Of a DNA stretch of 64,000 bases, positions 51,765-58,390 are shown piece after piece. Positions within the stretch are counted from its first letter, which is position 1. Each line of letters begins with the position of its first letter. The notes below the pieces were generated by a model that did no database searches, was not told the origin of the DNA, and was given only the letters and a program-made list of their open reading frames with translations. The DNA is from Rubrobacteraceae bacterium (lineage in GTDB: Bacteria; Actinomycetota; Rubrobacteria; Rubrobacterales; Rubrobacteraceae): NCBI GenBank assembly GCA_035463295.1, contig DATHTK010000023.1:1563-65562 (forward strand), written 5' to 3'. The translations under genes were made by a program, and so were the position numbers.

Positions 51765-52544
51765 CTACGCTCGTCCGTTGCCGGTCTCGCGGGCGCGGCG
51801 GTACTCGGAGACCATGAGCTCGGTGAGCTCCTCGACGGAGGTCTCGCTCGTCGGCCTGTCGTAGCTAATGCTACCGTGCTGGAGGACGTTCACGCGGTCG
51901 CAGACCTCGAAGACGTGAGCGTAGTTGTGGACTATAAGGATGATCGAGACCTCCCCCTCGTCGCGCAGGCGTTGTATGAGGTCGAGGATCATCGCGCCCT
52001 CTTTGGCGCCCATCGCCGCCAGCGGCTCGTCGAGGAGCAGTATCTTCGCGTTCGAGTAGACGGAGCGGGCGACCGCTATCGCCTGGCGCTGGCCGCCGGA
52101 GAGCATCGCTACCGTCGTGTCGATGGAGGGGATGTTGACCCCGATCTCATCCAGGTAGCGGCGGGTCTTCTCCTTCATAGCGCGGTTGTTGAGAAGGGGG
52201 AGGGGGCGGCGTGTGATCTCGGAGTTCAGGAACATGTTGTGGTAGACGCTGAGGTCGTTGACGAGCGCGAGGTCCTGGAAGACGGTCTGGATCCCCAGGC
52301 TCTGCGCGTGTGAGACCGACTTCAGCTCGATCTCCTCGTCCTCTATAAAGATCCTGCCGGCGTCGGGCTTGTGGAAGCCGGTGATGATCTTGATCAGGGT
52401 GGACTTCCCGGCCCCGTTGTCCCCGATGAGGCCGAGCACCTCGCCCCTGCGCAGGTGCAGGCTGACGTCGCTCAGGGCGACGTTCGGTCCGAACCGTTTG
52501 ACGATGTTCTCCGCGCGCAGTACGTCCGGGGCCCCATCGTTCAC
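51765..52544 (-). CDS. Sugar ABC transporter ATP-binding protein (single-NBD, FrcA-like)
   Basis: Walker A GDNGAGKST, signature LSGGQRQ, Walker B ILLLDEP. GTG 52544 overlaps the permease stop (GTGA) behind GAGGAGGA. The ORF-track extension to 53006 lies inside the permease gene. Confidence 0.9.
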   Translation of the reverse strand: MNDGAPDVLRAENIVKRFGPNVALSDVSLHLRRGEVLGLIGDNGAGKSTLIKIITGFHKPDAGRIFIEDEEIELKSVSHAQSLGIQTVFQDLALVNDLSVYHNMFLNSEITRRPLPLLNNRAMKEKTRRYLDEIGVNIPSIDTTVAMLSGGQRQAIAVARSVYSNAKILLLDEPLAAMGAKEGAMILDLIQRLRDEGEVSIILIVHNYAHVFEVCDRVNVLQHGSISYDRPTSETSVEELTELMVSEYRRARETGNGRA

Positions 52545-53557
52545 GAGATCCTCCTCGCCGTCCGCATCCTGCCGACGTAGATGTTGAGAACCATGACGAT
52601 CAGGATGGCGATCCCGAGGATGACGTTGAAGGTGAACGCGCCTATGCCCTGCAGCGTGAACCCGTTGCGCAATACCGAGAGCACCAGCGTCCCGATAAAG
52701 GCCCCGATCATGGTCCCCACCCCGCCGGCGAGCGGCGTCCCCCCGATGACCGCCGCCGAGATCGCCAGGAACATCACGCCCGCCCCGCCCGCCAGGGGGT
52801 CTATGGACTCGATGCGCATCGCCTCCAGAATCCCGGCGAACCCGGCGAGCGTGCTGCAGATCATGAAGTTCACGATCCTCACCCGGTCGACCTTTATGCC
52901 CGCTTCCTTGGCCCCAATGAAGTTGCCGCCGGTCGCGAAGGTGTAGATCCCCCAGCGCGTGTAGTTGAGCAGCACGTGCATGATGATGAAGACGGCGACG
53001 CACCACAGGATGCCCGCGTACGGGTACTCCCCGAGCGCCCGGGTGATGGCGCTCTCCTCCGGCGTGGTCTTGGGGAAGCCCGCTACGAGTATGACGTTCA
53101 CCCCGCCCAGCAGGAAGTACATCCCCAGGGTCGCCACGAAAGACGGCACCCCGAAGTAGACCCTCAAGACCCCGTTCACGAATCCTACGACCGCGGTCAG
53201 GAGCAGCCCCAGTACCACCGCGAGCGGCAGGACCAGGAAGAACTGCTCGTAGGCTATGTACATCGCGATCGGCGCGAACGCGAAGGCCTGGCCGACGGAG
53301 AGGTCGATCTCGCCGAGGATCATCACCATCACGAGCCCGGCGGCTACGATGGCGGTCGCGGCTATGGACTGCGCGAGACCTCGCAGGTTCCCCTGCTGCA
53401 GGAACGCCGGGTTTGAGGCCTGGAAGTAGATCACCAGCGCCACCGCGACGACGAAGATGCTGATCTCCTGCCGCCGCAACAGCGTCTCGGCCACGCGGGC
53501 GAAGAGCCCGGGACCCTGAGTCTCCGCCTCGTCCCTTGTCGGTGCCCGGGTAGCCAT
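52541..53557 (-). CDS. Sugar ABC transporter permease (BPD_transp_2, RbsC/FrcC-like)
   Basis: Roughly 9-10 TM segments. GEIDLSVGQ and GGTPLAGGVGT signatures. Confidence 0.9.
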   Translation of the reverse strand: MATRAPTRDEAETQGPGLFARVAETLLRRQEISIFVVAVALVIYFQASNPAFLQQGNLRGLAQSIAATAIVAAGLVMVMILGEIDLSVGQAFAFAPIAMYIAYEQFFLVLPLAVVLGLLLTAVVGFVNGVLRVYFGVPSFVATLGMYFLLGGVNVILVAGFPKTTPEESAITRALGEYPYAGILWCVAVFIIMHVLLNYTRWGIYTFATGGNFIGAKEAGIKVDRVRIVNFMICSTLAGFAGILEAMRIESIDPLAGGAGVMFLAISAAVIGGTPLAGGVGTMIGAFIGTLVLSVLRNGFTLQGIGAFTFNVILGIAILIVMVLNIYVGRMRTARRIS

Positions 53558-53570
53558 CGAACTCGACGGC

Positions 53571-54650
53571 CTAGCCGTTGGAACGGCCCAGGATCTTCTG
53601 TTGCTCGGCGTCCCCCTCGAAGCGCGACTCGGTGTTCAGGTACTGCGCCGCGTCGTCCTGCTCGACGAATAGCAGACCCGTGTTGGTCTCGGCCGGACCC
53701 GTGAGCCCGTCGGAGATCTTGTACAGGTAGAGCTGCATCACCGGGTAGAACCCTTGCAGGTAGGGTTGCTGATCTATCGTGAAGTCGATGTGGCCCGCAT
53801 CTAGCAGCTCCAGCGTCTTGGGGAGCAGGTCGTACCCGCCGCCCCTCACGCCCTGCTCGTGCAACCCGTAGCGCTCCATGACCTGCGCGACGCCCTGGGT
53901 GCTCCCCGCGTCCACGGCGAACATGCCCGCTACGTCCTTGTGCCCCTGGTAGTACGCGTCGATCCTGTTCAGCTCCTCCGGCAGGTCCGCGCCGGTCGTG
54001 ATCGGCTCCACCTCTATGTTCGCACCCGATGACTCTATGGCCTGCCGCGCCCCGTCTATGCGCGGCTGGATGTTGAGCTGGCCCGGGGTCGCGATGAAGA
54101 GCGCGACCAGACCCTCGCCTACCAGCTCCACGATCTGCTTGCCCATCTCCTGGCCCGACCCGAAGAGGTCCTGCCCGACGTATGCGAGCGCCGGGTTTGT
54201 CCCCGGTCCCTCACCGTTGGCGTTGTAGGCGATGACCGGGATGTCGTTGTCCAGGGCCTCCTGGATCGGGTCGTTGAACGCCTGGGGGTCGACGACGGAG
54301 ACCGCGATGCCGTCGGCGTTGCCCGAGATCGCCGTGTTCATGGCGTCCACCATCTCCTGCACGTCAGAGGTCTCCGAACCCGTCCACTGAGACTTCGTAC
54401 CGACAAGCGCCTGAGCGTCCTCGATGCCGTAACGCGTCGGGGTGAAGAAGGGGTTGGTCGTCACGTGATTGACGAAGACGAAGTTGTACTCGGGTGTCTC
54501 CGGGAAGTTGCCAGCGCCCCCGCCGCCACCTCCCTGAGAGGCCTCCTCGCGCCTGCACCCGGCGAACAGTAACCCCGCGCTCGCTAGCGCCCCCGCCGCC
54601 AGAAACTGCCGACGCCCCAGCGTGTAGCTCCCTACGCCGTTTTCCTTCAT
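53571..54650 (-). CDS. Sugar ABC transporter substrate-binding lipoprotein (RbsB/Peripla_BP_4-like) with Tat-type signal
   Basis: RRQFLAAGALASAGLLFAGC signal/lipobox, periplasmic-binding fold. ATG 54650 chosen because the promoter/operator at 54701-54730 overlaps the longer GTG 54701 start. Confidence 0.85.
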   Translation of the reverse strand: MKENGVGSYTLGRRQFLAAGALASAGLLFAGCRREEASQGGGGGGAGNFPETPEYNFVFVNHVTTNPFFTPTRYGIEDAQALVGTKSQWTGSETSDVQEMVDAMNTAISGNADGIAVSVVDPQAFNDPIQEALDNDIPVIAYNANGEGPGTNPALAYVGQDLFGSGQEMGKQIVELVGEGLVALFIATPGQLNIQPRIDGARQAIESSGANIEVEPITTGADLPEELNRIDAYYQGHKDVAGMFAVDAGSTQGVAQVMERYGLHEQGVRGGGYDLLPKTLELLDAGHIDFTIDQQPYLQGFYPVMQLYLYKISDGLTGPAETNTGLLFVEQDDAAQYLNTESRFEGDAEQQKILGRSNG

Positions 54651-54700: not shown

Positions 54701-54730
54701 CATTGTTATACCAATTTCAATCCCTGTCAA
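54701..54730 (-). promoter_or_regulatory. Promoter/GntR-operator copy 1. Minus strand: TTGACAgggattgaaATTGGTATAACAATg
   Basis: The 17 bases at the + strand left end and the 7 bases at the right end are identical to 58361-58390. -35 TTGACA, 17-nt spacer, -10-like AACAAT, overlapped by the near-palindrome ATTGGTATAACAAT (FadR/GntR-type t.GT...AC.a core). Confidence 0.6.
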
Positions 54731-55534: not shown

Positions 55535-56704
55535 TCATGTTCCTCGCCTTCGCGTTGTCTCGCGCTTCTCCCATCCCTCGGCGAAGAGGTTGAAGTGCAC
55601 GTCCCTCTTCGGGTGCGCAGAGATCACGTCCTCGTCCAGCTCGACGCCGAGACCGGGACCTCTCGGCAGCCCGAAGTAGCCGTCGACGACCTCGGGGAGG
55701 CCGGGGGCGGTGTCGCGGACCCAGGGGTCGGCGAAGTCGTTGAAGTACTCCTGGATGCGGAAGTTCGTCGTCGAGGCCGCCAGGTGCAGAGCGGCGGCCG
55801 TATTGATCTGACCCCCCACGTTGTGCGGGGCGACGGTGACGTAGTAGGCGTCGGCCCAGGCGGCGAGCTTCTTGGTCTCCAGGAGACCGCCGATGTGGCT
55901 GATGTCCGGCTGTATCACGTCCGCCGCCTGCAGCTCGAAGAGCTCGCGGTACTCGAGCCGCTGGTGGATGCGTTCGCCGGTCGCCACCGGGATGCCGGGT
56001 GGGATCTTCTCGGAGGCTTTCTTCAGCGCCTTCAGGTTCACCGGCGGCACCGGCTCCTCGACCCACCCGAGCCCGTACGGCTCGAGCATACGGGCCATCT
56101 CGGCGGCGGTCGCCGGGGAGAAGCGACCGTGCATCTCCAGCAGGATCTCGGGCTCCGGCCCGACCGCGTCGCGCACCGCCTCGACGAGCGCGGCCGCCCG
56201 CAGCTTCTCGTCCCGCTCCAGCTCGTAGTGCCCCGGCCCGAAGGGGTCGAGCTTGAGGGCCTTGTAGCCCTTCTCGACGACCTTCCGCGCGGCGGTGTGG
56301 AACTCCTCGGGTTCCCTCTCGACCCGGTACCAGCCGTTGGCGTAGGCTTTGATGCGATCTCGTACCGGGCCGCCGAGGAGATTGTAGACCGGTTGGTCCA
56401 GGGCCTTCCCGATTATGTCCCAGCAGGCCGTCTCGAAGGCGGCTATCCCGCTGCTCATCACCTCTCCCGCGCGCGAGAAGTCGTCGCGGGAGAGCTTCCT
56501 TACCAGCTCCTCGATGCGGAAGGGGTCGTGCCCGATCACGTGCCGCGGCGCTGCCTCTTTGAGGTAGCCGACCAGAGCGTCGGTGTGGTTGACCATCCGC
56601 ACCTCGCCGAGACCCGTCAGTCCTTCGTCGGTGTGGAGCCTCACGATGGTCAGGTTACGCCAGTCGGTGCCGACGACGAAGGTCTCGGCGTCCGTGATCT
56701 TCAT
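55535..56704 (-). CDS. Enolase-superfamily dehydratase (mandelate racemase/muconate lactonizing family; galactonate/mannonate dehydratase-like)
   Basis: [11 protein letters not shown]...[39 protein letters not shown], and a C-terminal tail typical of the acid-sugar dehydratase subgroup. ATG 56704 overlaps the upstream stop (ATGA). The Arg-rich ORF-track extension to 57409 is rejected. Confidence 0.88.
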
Positions 56705-57648
56705 GCCCCCTCCTCCGCGGTGGTATCGATCGGAATGCCCGGGAAGGCCGTCCCCTCCGCGCTGACCTCGGCCCCCGGGTAGTAACGGTCGAGCATCGCG
56801 AGCCCGATCTCCGCCCGCCGTACTCTCTCGCGGCCCAGCGCGATCGCGGTCGCCTCCAGATGGGTCCCGCTCGGGTAGATGTTCGGGGCGTTGCGCAGGC
56901 CGAACTTGACGAACACGGGAGAGGCCACCCGGACGAGGTCGGGGATCTCGTAGTGCCGGACGAACCCGCCGAAGTCGTCGGGCACCTCTACGTAGACGTC
57001 GAGCGGGAGGTCCGTAACGGCCCTTATGGCGGCGAGCTGCGCGAGGCTGAGGTCGGTCGGGACGTTGTAGGTTCCGGCCCCGAGGTCCTCCATCGCCTTT
57101 ACGGCCGCCGCGTTCGCCGCGGAGAGCTGTACCGAGACCTTCACGACCAGGTCCTCGGGCAACTCTTCGCGGGCTTTCAGGTCTCTGAGCACCCACAGAA
57201 GCCCCGCGTCGGCGACGAGCACCCCGCGCAGCCCTAGAGAGACGCCGCGCAGCACGTCCTCGAGAGCGTAGGCGAGCTGGTCCTGTCCGCGGTGCTGGGC
57301 GCCGAGGACCTTCCCCGCGCCGGAGACCACGGCGGCCCCAGTCTCCCAGGCGGCGCGCGGCCCGACGAAGAGCGAGAGCTCCAGCCCCTTCTCGCGCGCC
57401 ATGTCGCACATCTCGAGGATCTCGGCGTCCGTGAGCAACACTATCCCCGAACCCTGGGAGACCCGGTGCAGCTGTACCCCGCGCTTCTCCGCCTCGTCGA
57501 GGACCGCCTCGAGCACCCGCGGCCCCTCGACGCTCGGGATCTCTACCCTGTACCGGGCGCCGTCCGGGAAACGTTTCTCCGAGTCCGGGAGATCGTGGAG
57601 ATCCCCCGCCGGCAGACCCAAGCCTCCGAGTAACTCGCGTGCCTTCAC
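56701..57648 (-). CDS. Uncharacterised 315-aa protein (predicted alpha/beta, possibly TIM-barrel), operonic with the enolase-superfamily dehydratase
   Basis: Good coding character. GTG 57648 sits behind GGGGAGG and overlaps the GntR stop (GTGA). Its own stop overlaps the dehydratase start. I recognise no family motif (RFPDGARYRVEIPSVEGP...). Confidence 0.7.
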   Translation of the reverse strand: MKARELLGGLGLPAGDLHDLPDSEKRFPDGARYRVEIPSVEGPRVLEAVLDEAEKRGVQLHRVSQGSGIVLLTDAEILEMCDMAREKGLELSLFVGPRAAWETGAAVVSGAGKVLGAQHRGQDQLAYALEDVLRGVSLGLRGVLVADAGLLWVLRDLKAREELPEDLVVKVSVQLSAANAAAVKAMEDLGAGTYNVPTDLSLAQLAAIRAVTDLPLDVYVEVPDDFGGFVRHYEIPDLVRVASPVFVKFGLRNAPNIYPSGTHLEATAIALGRERVRRAEIGLAMLDRYYPGAEVSAEGTAFPGIPIDTTAEEGA

Positions 57649-58349
57649 GTTACCTCCCCTTCTTCGAGGGCCGCCTCGATGTCCCGGGCCGTGTTCGCCA
57701 GGTGCGACCTCATCTCCTCCCGGGCGCCTTCGGCGTCTCCGCTCTCCACCCGGCGCAGTATCCTCTCGTGCTCCTCCAGCGCGCGCTCCGCGTTGCCGGG
57801 GCGCGCAGCGCTTACCCGTCGGCTCGCCCGCAGCAGATCCACGACTGGCTCGAGCATCGTGAGAAGAACGCCGTTGCGGACGCTGCGCGCGAGCAAGGCG
57901 TGAAACTCCACGTCAGCGTCGACGTAACCCTCAGGTACGCCTATGGAGTCGCGCATCCTCTCCAGTTGTTCCTCCATGGCCCGCACGTCCTCAGGCCCCG
58001 CCCGCCGGGCGGCGAGACCCGCGATCTCGACCTCCAGAATCCGCCTCATCTCCAGGAGCTCCCTCAACGTGCCCGGCTGGACGCGTAACAGCAGACCCAG
58101 CGTGTCCCGCACGGCGCGCGTGTCGCCGCCGCTGACCACCGCCCCCCGACCGTGCTCGATGCTTATGAGACCCCGCGCCTCTAGCAAGTTCAGCGCCTCG
58201 CGTACCACCGTCCGGCTGACCTCCAACCGGGCGCACAACTCGCGCTCGGGCGGGAGCCGCTCACCCGGACTGAGGCCGCCCGAGACGACCAGGTCCAGTA
58301 ACTGCTCCGCCGCCCGGTCCCTCAGCCTCGTGCGCGGCGTCCGTTCCAT
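57645..58349 (-). CDS. GntR-family (FadR/FCD subfamily) transcriptional regulator
   Basis: wHTH LPPERELCARLEVSRTVVREALNLLEARGLI and a helical FCD-type C-terminal domain. ATG 58349 chosen because the promoter/operator lies at 58361-58390, implying a very short or absent leader. Confidence 0.88.
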   Translation of the reverse strand: MERTPRTRLRDRAAEQLLDLVVSGGLSPGERLPPERELCARLEVSRTVVREALNLLEARGLISIEHGRGAVVSGGDTRAVRDTLGLLLRVQPGTLRELLEMRRILEVEIAGLAARRAGPEDVRAMEEQLERMRDSIGVPEGYVDADVEFHALLARSVRNGVLLTMLEPVVDLLRASRRVSAARPGNAERALEEHERILRRVESGDAEGAREEMRSHLANTARDIEAALEEGEVT

Positions 58350-58360
58350 CACCCCAAGGG

Positions 58361-58390
58361 CATTGTTATACCAATTTGGGGGTCTGTCAA
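58361..58390 (-). promoter_or_regulatory. Promoter/GntR-operator copy 2. Minus strand: TTGACAgacccccaaATTGGTATAACAATg
   Basis: Same architecture and conserved blocks as 54701-54730. It lies 12 nt upstream of the GntR start. Confidence 0.6.

Follow-up and report, generated by a model that had tools for sequence, protein, structure and literature searches.

The stretch of DNA analyzed here (64,000 nucleotides of contig DATHTK010000023.1 from a Rubrobacteraceae bacterium, in the following the window) carries on its minus strand, in this order, the genes for a GntR/FCD regulator, a protein of 315 residues, an enolase-superfamily (MR_MLE) dehydratase, a short-chain dehydrogenase/reductase (SDR), a Peripla_BP_4 binding protein, a permease and an ABC ATPase (Table 1). 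The 315-residue protein, a U32-like TIM-barrel protein denoted U32L, is the subject of this study. It represents a widespread, unstudied type of barrel enzyme found together with sugar-acid dehydratases in at least four bacterial phyla and probably carries out an unrecognized step in oxidative sugar breakdown. The reading put forward here, with a probability of roughly 45%, is that U32L is a lyase acting on the 2-keto-3-deoxy acid produced by the neighboring dehydratase, either as an aldolase or as a second dehydratase forming α-ketoglutarate semialdehyde (α-KGSA).

The open reading frame (ORF) of U32L starts with GTG and overlaps each of its neighbors by 4 nt. At the upstream junction (minus strand, ...GAAGGGGAGGTAACGTGAAGG...) the GTG at 57648-57646 shares TG with the GntR stop codon TGA at 57647-57645, and at the downstream junction (minus strand, ...GGGGCATGAAG...) the ATG of the dehydratase at 56704-56702 overlaps the U32L stop codon TGA at 56703-56701. 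The Shine-Dalgarno sequence GGGGAGG is located within the end of the GntR gene at a spacing of 4 nt to the GTG, and the start position agrees to 1-3 residues with the starts of homologues from other phyla. An initial annotation of this DNA had described the two overlaps (GTGA and ATGA), a Shine-Dalgarno sequence belonging to U32L itself and translational coupling on both sides; these features are recovered in the minus-strand sequence. From the overlapping codons only, we infer that U32L is co-transcribed with its neighbors. A spurious ORF is ruled out by conservation.

A promoter/operator element of 30 nt (TTGACA...AAATTGGTATAACAATG) precedes both the GntR gene and the binding-protein gene. 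Its 16-nt core AAATTGGTATAACAAT is present in exactly two copies in the whole 3.19-Mb genome, both of them in this locus, so that the regulon would consist of this locus alone. Beyond the two local sites, the operator search across the genome revealed no trans-encoded partner and a single weak site with 3 mismatches (G000:C93:16966-16981, AGATTGGTAAAACAAG). The mechanically called GntR ORF reaches to 58460 and would overlap the operator as well as the end of the upstream gene. The gene probably starts instead at ATG 58349, which is preceded by the Shine-Dalgarno-like sequence GGGGTGA and corresponds to the MERT/MEQS position at which homologues start. Similarly, ATG 54650 is a more probable start of the binding-protein gene than GTG 54701.

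Table 1. Features of the U32L locus, with positions in the window.
Feature	Position	Strand	Basis
Promoter/operator element, copy 1, upstream of the GntR gene	58361..58390	(-)	Direct repeat D5 and sequence
GntR/FCD-family regulator	57645..58349	(-)	Pfam GntR and FCD domains; likely start ATG 58349
Shine-Dalgarno sequence GGGGAGG of U32L	57653..57659	(-)	Read from sequence, within GntR gene end
U32L, 315-aa cysteine-less U32-like TIM-barrel protein	56701..57648	(-)	ORF, partial PF01136 match, AlphaFold barrel, conserved residues
Enolase-superfamily (MR_MLE) acid-sugar dehydratase, 389 aa	55535..56704	(-)	Pfam MR_MLE_N and MR_MLE_C
SDR, 260 aa	54748..55530	(-)	Pfam adh_short_C2
Promoter/operator element, copy 2, in front of the genes of the ABC transporter	54701..54730	(-)	Direct repeat and genome search
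Sugar-binding protein of CUT2-type ABC transporter (Peripla_BP_4)	53571..54650	(-)	Pfam; ORF extends to 54701
ABC transporter permease (BPD_transp_2)	52541..53557	(-)	Domain match
ABC transporter ATPase	51765..52544	(-)	Approximate start; mechanical ORF to 53006, ABC_tran from residue 178 of the long ORF

The best-scoring NCBIfam models for the dehydratase are gluconate and galactonate dehydratases, with scores below their cut-offs, and its nearest PDB entry, 2poz, is titled 'putative dehydratase' with no substrate assigned. The SDR passes the PRK07231 'glucose 1-dehydrogenase' subfamily model (225 bits, cut-off 215), and in the PDB it comes closest to FabG and glucose 1-dehydrogenases. The PDB relatives of the dehydratase, the SDR and the binding protein have no assigned ligands and hence provide no clue to the substrate.

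Family placement and predicted fold

According to the initial annotation U32L could not be assigned to any family, yet it does match Peptidase_U32 (PF01136), weakly and partially. The match scores 33.7 bits at a cut-off of 22.4, aligns residues 137-220 to profile positions 13-90 of 233 and spans barrel strands β4-β7. Over the same approximately 90 residues U32L is weakly matched by the NCBIfam models TrhP and UbiU (21 and 19 bits, cut-offs 534 and 440). Neither a further Pfam domain nor a full-length U32 domain nor the C-terminal U32_C/DUF3656 domain is found in U32L, and a canonical U32 gene is absent from its genome. Characterized U32 proteins are O2-independent hydroxylases with a [4Fe-4S] cluster held by four conserved cysteines; the motif CX6CX15CX3/4C is essential in UbiU/UbiV and kept in 8 of 10 U32 families, the two families without it being unstudied (PMC6747719).

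U32L contains only one cysteine, C81, in an alignment column that is Cys in 29 of 113 relatives; none of the columns exceeds 45% Cys. The protein thus lacks the four-cysteine motif, no Cys column is conserved among the 113 relatives, and since U32L fails this defining motif, the known U32 roles do not transfer. Judged from the sequence, U32L is a distant, cysteine-less offshoot of Peptidase_U32, homologous over β4-β7 to UbiU/UbiV, TrhP, RlhA and PrtC. It differs from them in aligning to a third of the Pfam profile, in lacking the four cysteines and in its genomic context, and would be a functionally new branch within a fold family that is already known. By description only, it can be likened to PepU32#5 and #6 (H3NJ45, D5MIQ1), which are U32-related, lack conserved cysteines and are functionally unstudied as well (Pelosi et al. 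2019, PMC6747719).

The alpha/beta or TIM-like fold proposed earlier agrees with the AlphaFold2 model calculated from a 29-sequence alignment, a confident (β/α)8 barrel (pLDDT 93.5, pTM 0.92). Comparison of this model with the PDB by Foldseek, a check suggested in the initial annotation, yields no close solved relative and no assignable function; all matches are distant and generic barrels. They comprise class II fructose-bisphosphate (FBP) and tagatose-bisphosphate (tagatose-BP) aldolases, the U32 protein Mk0906 (PDB code 5d88, E 2e-6, 19% identity, same TIM-barrel fold), isocitrate lyase/phosphoenolpyruvate (PEP)-mutase enzymes, ketopantoate hydroxymethyltransferase, KDPG aldolase (KDPG, 2-keto-3-deoxy-6-phosphogluconate) as well as oxaloacetate acetylhydrolase and oxaloacetate decarboxylase barrels. 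A phmmer search with U32L against the PDB sequences gives no match, and the family profile finds only fragments with E > 0.04 there.

Among 113 relatives E36, R62, D147, K170, S172, D217, R231 and K248 are conserved, and the conserved polar residues sit at the C-terminal ends of the barrel strands, on or just after them. Strand β1 contributes R34 and E36, β2 H61 (81%) and R62, β4 D147, β5 K170 and S172, β6 N195, β7 D217 and β8 K248, whereas G227, G228 and R231 belong to the loop after β7 and S23, F27 and D29 to an N-terminal motif. In the model this residue set looks like that of an enzyme for an anionic substrate. With the active-site geometry taken from the strand positions, R62 and R231 could bind a carboxylate, E36, D147 and D217 could serve as acid/base residues or metal ligands, and K170 or K248, both conserved to 98%, could be a Schiff-base lysine or a base. 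A Schiff-base mechanism is thus possible, although U32L is not a member of the class I DHDPS-NAL or KDPG-aldolase families (no Pfam match to PF00701 or PF01081).

Class II FBP/tagatose-BP aldolases (PF01116; PDB codes 1rvg and 1gvf) are the top Foldseek matches (E ~1e-6, TM 0.46-0.55) and also share a short profile match with U32L at its β7 segment DVPL(D/V)(L/I)(H/Y). Their zinc-binding histidines, however, are not kept, and the matches are at the generic TIM-barrel level. Where AgaY has His208, U32L has Y219 (Tyr in 98 of the 113 sequences, His in 11), and no zinc-binding His triad is seen in U32L, the best conserved His columns being H61 (81%), H263 (80%) and H232 (51%). Pfam and NCBIfam provide no match of U32L to the sugar lactonase families SMP-30/SGL, Amidohydro_2 or MBL fold, nor to any known aldolase, lactonase, FAH or DHDPS family.

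Genomic context across phyla

U32L belongs to a large family: 7,874 of the 8,000 candidates scored in the homologue search match at E <= 0.001, mostly from soil metagenomes, and the closest named relative among the matches listed is a Rubrobacter tropicus protein (89% identity). The 50%-identity library yielded 1,180 representative clusters of the family, and a search with an 11-sequence alignment across a one-genome-per-species collection confirmed at least 595 loci. Hosts are Rubrobacteraceae, many Chloroflexota, Acidobacteriota, Streptomyces-like actinobacteria and Bacillota, the latter including Geobacillus, Parageobacillus, Brevibacillus, Cytobacillus and Alicyclobacillus. Relatives bear the public names 'U32 family peptidase' or 'hypothetical protein', which are probably wrong for this family, and a full-text search of one paper library found no publication that links U32-like proteins with sugar acids or describes the family.

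Between phyla the identity of U32L is unusually high (57-71%) while the superfamily of the partner dehydratase changes, as is consistent with an enzyme whose substrate is a shared intermediate. Once an aldonate has been dehydrated, its stereocenters are retained from C4 onward only, so that different aldonates converge on few products.

In order to compare the neighborhoods, every ORF lying up to 7 kb from U32L was clustered for 80 loci, and the clusters were labeled from Pfam or NCBIfam; a further 18 loci of Actinomycetota genomes and two records of plasmids were included. ORF calling was mechanical, also in high-GC loci. All Rubrobacteraceae loci examined share the operon GntR–U32L–ENOL–SDR–ABC, with ENOL denoting the enolase-superfamily dehydratase. 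In Actinomycetota, Chloroflexota, Bacillota and Acidobacteriota the context of U32L consists of sugar or sugar-acid clusters. Gene orders are ENOL–ADH_Zn–U32L–ABC in Streptomyces-like genomes, ABC–ADH_Zn–U32L–ENOL in Ktedonobacteraceae, U32L–ENOL in many Chloroflexota, ENOL–Amidohydro_2–ABC–GFO_IDH–U32L in the Chloroflexi locus L041, IclR–ABC–ENOL–MBL–permease–U32L on the megaplasmid of Thermomicrobium roseum (TRD_RS11835) and SGL–U32L, in part followed by Amidohydro_2, in Phototrophicaceae. U32L and an aldehyde dehydrogenase (ALDH) gene adjoin in either order in Bacillota, Actinomycetota and Chloroflexota. Large Bacillota sugar-acid islands show the arrangements IlvD-like–U32L, with an IlvD-like protein of ~735 aa, and DHDPS–U32L–SAF–UxaA; around U32L they also hold TRAP transporters, LarA with LarBCE, FAH, PfkB and Eda, 2-hydroxyacid dehydrogenases and GucD-type ALDH. 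A cassette of Pseudalkalibacillus (L047), flanked by housekeeping genes, consists of IclR, an L-rhamnonate-dehydratase equivalog, U32L, GucD and the acid transporter TctCBA; its GucD is an α-KGSA dehydrogenase equivalog (899 bits, cut-off 770).

Among the 83 non-Rubrobacter loci a dehydratase of one of three unrelated superfamilies (ENOL, long IlvD/EDD-like, UxaA/SAF) is the immediate neighbor of U32L in 25 and part of the same predicted operon in 36. The respective numbers are 20 and 28 for dehydrogenases (15 of them directly upstream), 9 and 17 for ALDH, 13 and 20 for FAH/DHDPS/Eda/PfkB, and 5 and 7 for known lactonase families. The adjoining dehydrogenases stem from five families, namely ADH_Zn, SDR, GFO_IDH, NAD-epimerase-like and 2-hydroxyacid dehydrogenase.

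Co-occurrence was analyzed in 401 Actinomycetota genomes, 49 of which were matched by the U32L search. Orthologs of the dehydratase are present in 35 genomes, and 32 of these also have U32L (Fisher p 2e-31, uncorrected for phylogeny and island linkage). Two of the three exceptions are truncated at contig ends (L145 ends within U32L, of which residues 1-38 are present), and non-orthologous displacement of U32L was rejected on these grounds. Within the Rubrobacteraceae 15 genomes have both U32L and the dehydratase ortholog and 17 have neither; GucD-like ALDH is found in 12 of the 15 and in 1 of the 17. U32L is thus a component of sugar-acid catabolic operons, associated with acid-sugar dehydratases across distant taxa of four phyla, and the conserved link to acid-sugar genes on which the initial annotation had staked its proposal does exist.

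Several further features of these neighborhoods deserve mention. The long IlvD/EDD-like protein (~730-775 aa) directly beside U32L in many Bacillota and some Chloroflexota (L039:7770-9980, also L046, L049, L050, L061, L068, L069 and L072) matches dihydroxy-acid dehydratase models only in its N- and C-terminal parts, far under the cut-offs, and from its sequence looks like an unstudied dehydratase subfamily. LarA-like genes occur in Bacillota islands together with LarB, LarC and LarE (L048:5886-8786, L051:6793-7602, L068:5318-6580 and related loci). As LarB, LarC and LarE are nickel-pincer cofactor synthesis genes, this implies Ni-dependent 2-hydroxyacid epimerization of sugar acids there. Pairs of FAH and GucD-like ALDH genes are located at L150:3182-5524, L151:14093-16459 and L152:8152-10780 and, in the genome of the window, on another contig (C57); in one Rubrobacter relative the pair adjoins a 910-aa double UxaA-type dehydratase.

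Candidate reactions of U32L

In the proposed mechanism, the GntR-controlled transcript would yield U32L together with the aldonate dehydratase and the SDR, the second operator copy would control the sugar ABC transporter, and the locus would amount to a self-contained module of sugar catabolism by an oxidative, non-phosphorylative route. U32L, a soluble barrel enzyme, would take the 2-keto-3-deoxy sugar acid from the dehydratase and convert it by 2-oxo-acid/enolate chemistry, for which two options are conceivable. Aldol cleavage would produce pyruvate and an aldehyde, whereas a second dehydration would lead to α-KGSA as in the Weimberg and glucarate routes, to be oxidized by an aldehyde dehydrogenase encoded elsewhere. 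The two options are about equally probable, and either one taken singly is somewhat unlikely.

Several operons speak for U32L acting on the product of the dehydratase. L041 contains an assigned dehydrogenase, a fuconolactonase-like lactonase, a dehydratase and a transporter, so that U32L is left over, which fits a step behind the dehydratase. In L047 an acid is imported and there is neither a dehydrogenase nor a source of a lactone, which fits it as well, and the T. roseum operon, which likewise lacks a dehydrogenase, is counted on the same side. Distant members of the family point in the same direction. One of them belongs to an operon GntR–U32L–TctCBA–PrpD–DHDPS, and others adjoin a translationally coupled aminotransferase and ALDH, a ComB-like phosphatase or 2-hydroxyacid dehydrogenases. 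That the aminotransferases, ALDH, 2-hydroxyacid dehydrogenases and the phosphatase all handle 2-oxo or PEP-derived acids suggests a related chemistry of U32L. The weak fold neighbors of the model are enolate-handling barrels and may be counted for 2-oxo-acid chemistry too.

Aldol cleavage would make the modules of Rubrobacter, Streptomyces and Ktedonobacter self-contained. U32L would then be a bacterial analogue of the KDG (2-keto-3-deoxygluconate) aldolase in the archaeal trio of glucose dehydrogenase (GDH), gluconate dehydratase (GAD) and KDG aldolase (KDGA), which belongs to the non-phosphorylative Entner-Doudoroff pathway; Eda and HpcH/HpaI are other aldolase classes. The likeness to the archaeal KD(P)G aldolase of the DHDPS family lies in the combination of a sugar dehydrogenase, an enolase-superfamily aldonate dehydratase and one further TIM-barrel enzyme. 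However, neither this aldolase nor Eda nor the HpcH/HpaI aldolases are related to U32L by sequence or Pfam, and Bacillota islands carry U32L, Eda and DHDPS side by side. The α-KGSA-forming dehydration is favored by the pairing with GucD and by the co-occurrence with GucD-like ALDH in Rubrobacteraceae described above. U32L would then be a functional analogue of the 2-keto-3-deoxy-pentonate and 5-keto-4-deoxyglucarate dehydratases XylX (FAH family) and KdaD/KdgD (DHDPS family). It adjoins GucD-type α-KGSA dehydrogenases (L047, L074), in the same way as ycbC (KdgD) lies beside ycbD (GucD) in B. subtilis. In contrast to these enzymes U32L belongs to an unrelated fold family, and FAH genes often co-occur with it.

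A number of observations weigh against a lyase. The Foldseek matches reach TM values of 0.4-0.55 only, and none of the matches in structure or sequence points to a mechanism of catalysis. The co-occurrence statistics ignore phylogeny and island-level linkage. Bacillota islands with U32L also hold FAH, DHDPS and PfkB with Eda; second-step candidates there outnumber the dehydratases even if U32L is not counted, which makes the count uninformative. Furthermore, Eda, HpcH-type and DHDPS-type genes as well as a GucD-like ALDH are encoded elsewhere in the genome of the window, which weakens the argument that U32L must be the aldolase for want of another. The proposal of the initial annotation that U32L is a candidate for the missing downstream step therefore stands in part: it agrees with L041, L047, the pairing of U32L with GucD and the distant members next to 2-oxo-acid enzymes, other contexts (complete Weimberg sets short of a lactonase, dehydrogenases directly upstream) fit a lactonase equally, and the 'missing enzyme' logic fails in the genome itself.

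The main rival is a lactonase for sugar lactones (aldono- or aldaro-), or else a lactone isomerase, whose step would follow the sugar 1-dehydrogenase and precede the dehydratase, possibly by a K170/S172 dyad or a carboxylate-bound metal. Such an activity is unlikely. Upstream dehydrogenases, the Weimberg set and the FAH–ALDH pair, all described in the following, speak for it and against a lyase. It would account for the finding that in 15 of 83 loci a dehydrogenase of one of five families immediately precedes U32L on the upstream side, the position expected of a lactonase, and the orders ABC–ADH_Zn–U32L–ENOL (L065) and SDR–U32L–IlvD (L035) follow the pathway. Other actinobacteria (L135-137) possess a Weimberg set of mutarotase, dehydrogenases, IlvD, FAH and ALDH in which only the lactonase is missing, and known lactonase families are part of only 7 of the 83 U32L operons. 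In close Rubrobacter relatives an FAH–ALDH pair lies 3-4 kb from the ABC genes of the operon, so that FAH could already be the second dehydratase and the lower Weimberg steps would be covered. On the other hand, L047 and P0146-type operons import acids by Tct transporters and lack a dehydrogenase, so no lactone forms, and L041, T. roseum and Phototrophicaceae loci already have Amidohydro_2, MBL or SGL lactonase-type genes near U32L. With R34, R62, R231, K170 and K248 as conserved cationic residues, an anionic substrate is a better fit than a neutral lactone, and distant members are accompanied by aminotransferases in clusters of biosynthetic type.

Less probable still is that U32L replaces the usual FAH-family hydrolase and cleaves a C-C bond of a 2,4-diketo-3-deoxy acid. 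In route III of non-phosphorylative pentose and 6-deoxyhexose catabolism a dehydratase, a 4-dehydrogenase and a hydrolase lead to pyruvate and glycolate or lactate. The order ENOL–ADH_Zn–U32L in Streptomyces-like genomes matches this reaction order, the Rubrobacter operon contains exactly a dehydratase, a dehydrogenase and U32L, and the oxaloacetate acetylhydrolase and decarboxylase barrels are among the structural matches. The neutral-sugar-type transporter, however, would require a sugar 1-dehydrogenase in addition, whereas the operon has one dehydrogenase only; L041 also has a single one (GFO_IDH), and L047 and T. roseum have none.

An isomerase or epimerase of the sugar acid or of the 2-keto-3-deoxy acid is improbable, too. 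U32L could catalyze C4 epimerization, migration of the keto group or a uronate-isomerase-like step which feeds KDG to PfkB kinase and Eda aldolase, as would agree with IlvD–U32L–PfkB–Eda in three Bacillota loci, with U32L–SAF–UxaA–PfkB–Eda in Geobacillus-type loci and with the LarA-type 2-hydroxyacid epimerases of the Bacillota islands. A trio of isomerase, reductase and dehydratase would moreover resemble the hexuronate isomerase pathway. This leaves the pairing with α-KGSA-type ALDH unexplained, and U32L neither conserves the metal-binding His/Glu pattern of known sugar-isomerase barrels nor has a Pfam or structural match to UxaC or xylose-isomerase-like barrels. Finally, a canonical U32 function might be suggested by the PF01136 match above the gathering threshold and the weak TrhP and UbiU matches to the same 90 residues. 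Whether as a collagenase-type peptidase or, as in UbiU/UbiV, TrhP or RlhA, as an O2-independent Fe-S hydroxylase that depends on prephenate, this function is effectively refuted by the missing cysteines, the more so as the match is confined to the mentioned part of the profile and the context is sugar catabolism instead of quinone, tRNA or rRNA modification.

If U32L is indeed a lyase, it would tentatively be regarded as a new, non-homologous class of 2-keto-3-deoxy-sugar-acid lyases which evolved from the U32 Fe-S hydroxylase barrel. Either the KDG/KD-pentonate aldolases would gain a third type in this way, or the α-KGSA-forming dehydratases one in addition to those of FAH and DHDPS. The U32 barrel would have lost its Fe-S cluster and kept a 2-oxo-acid binding site, and in natural-product clusters distant branches would use this chemistry for the synthesis of unusual 2-oxo acids or amino acids. 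Oxidative non-phosphorylative pathways for sugars and sugar acids still have many gaps and are relevant to the conversion of plant-biomass sugars into chemicals. Members of the family are frequent in Rubrobacter from soil, in Chloroflexota, in Streptomyces-like genomes and in thermophilic bacilli. Assigning the reaction would correct thousands of annotations, help to assign the neighboring dehydratase family (nearest PDB entry 2poz) and show what a U32 barrel does without an iron-sulfur cluster. As a lyase, U32L would also be of use in enzyme cascades, namely as a new scaffold of a thermostable aldolase or 2-keto-3-deoxy-acid dehydratase.

Some members of the family are found apart from sugar-acid genes. 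In two very small actinobacterial genomes of 1.2-1.6 Mb (L130:7095-8930 and L131) U32L follows downstream of panB at a distance of 40 bp, in a neighborhood free of sugar-acid genes; panB encodes ketopantoate hydroxymethyltransferase, and ketopantoate is also a 4-hydroxy-2-oxo acid. Distant members with 30-38% identity occur in natural-product-like clusters (L157:5649-10478, L159:149-3642, L163:230-5562, L092:7835-12779), one of them on an Enterobacter plasmid, next to genes for aminotransferases, ATP-grasp, TauD and adenylation-PCP proteins, a ComB-like phosphatase and 'iron-containing redox enzyme' genes.

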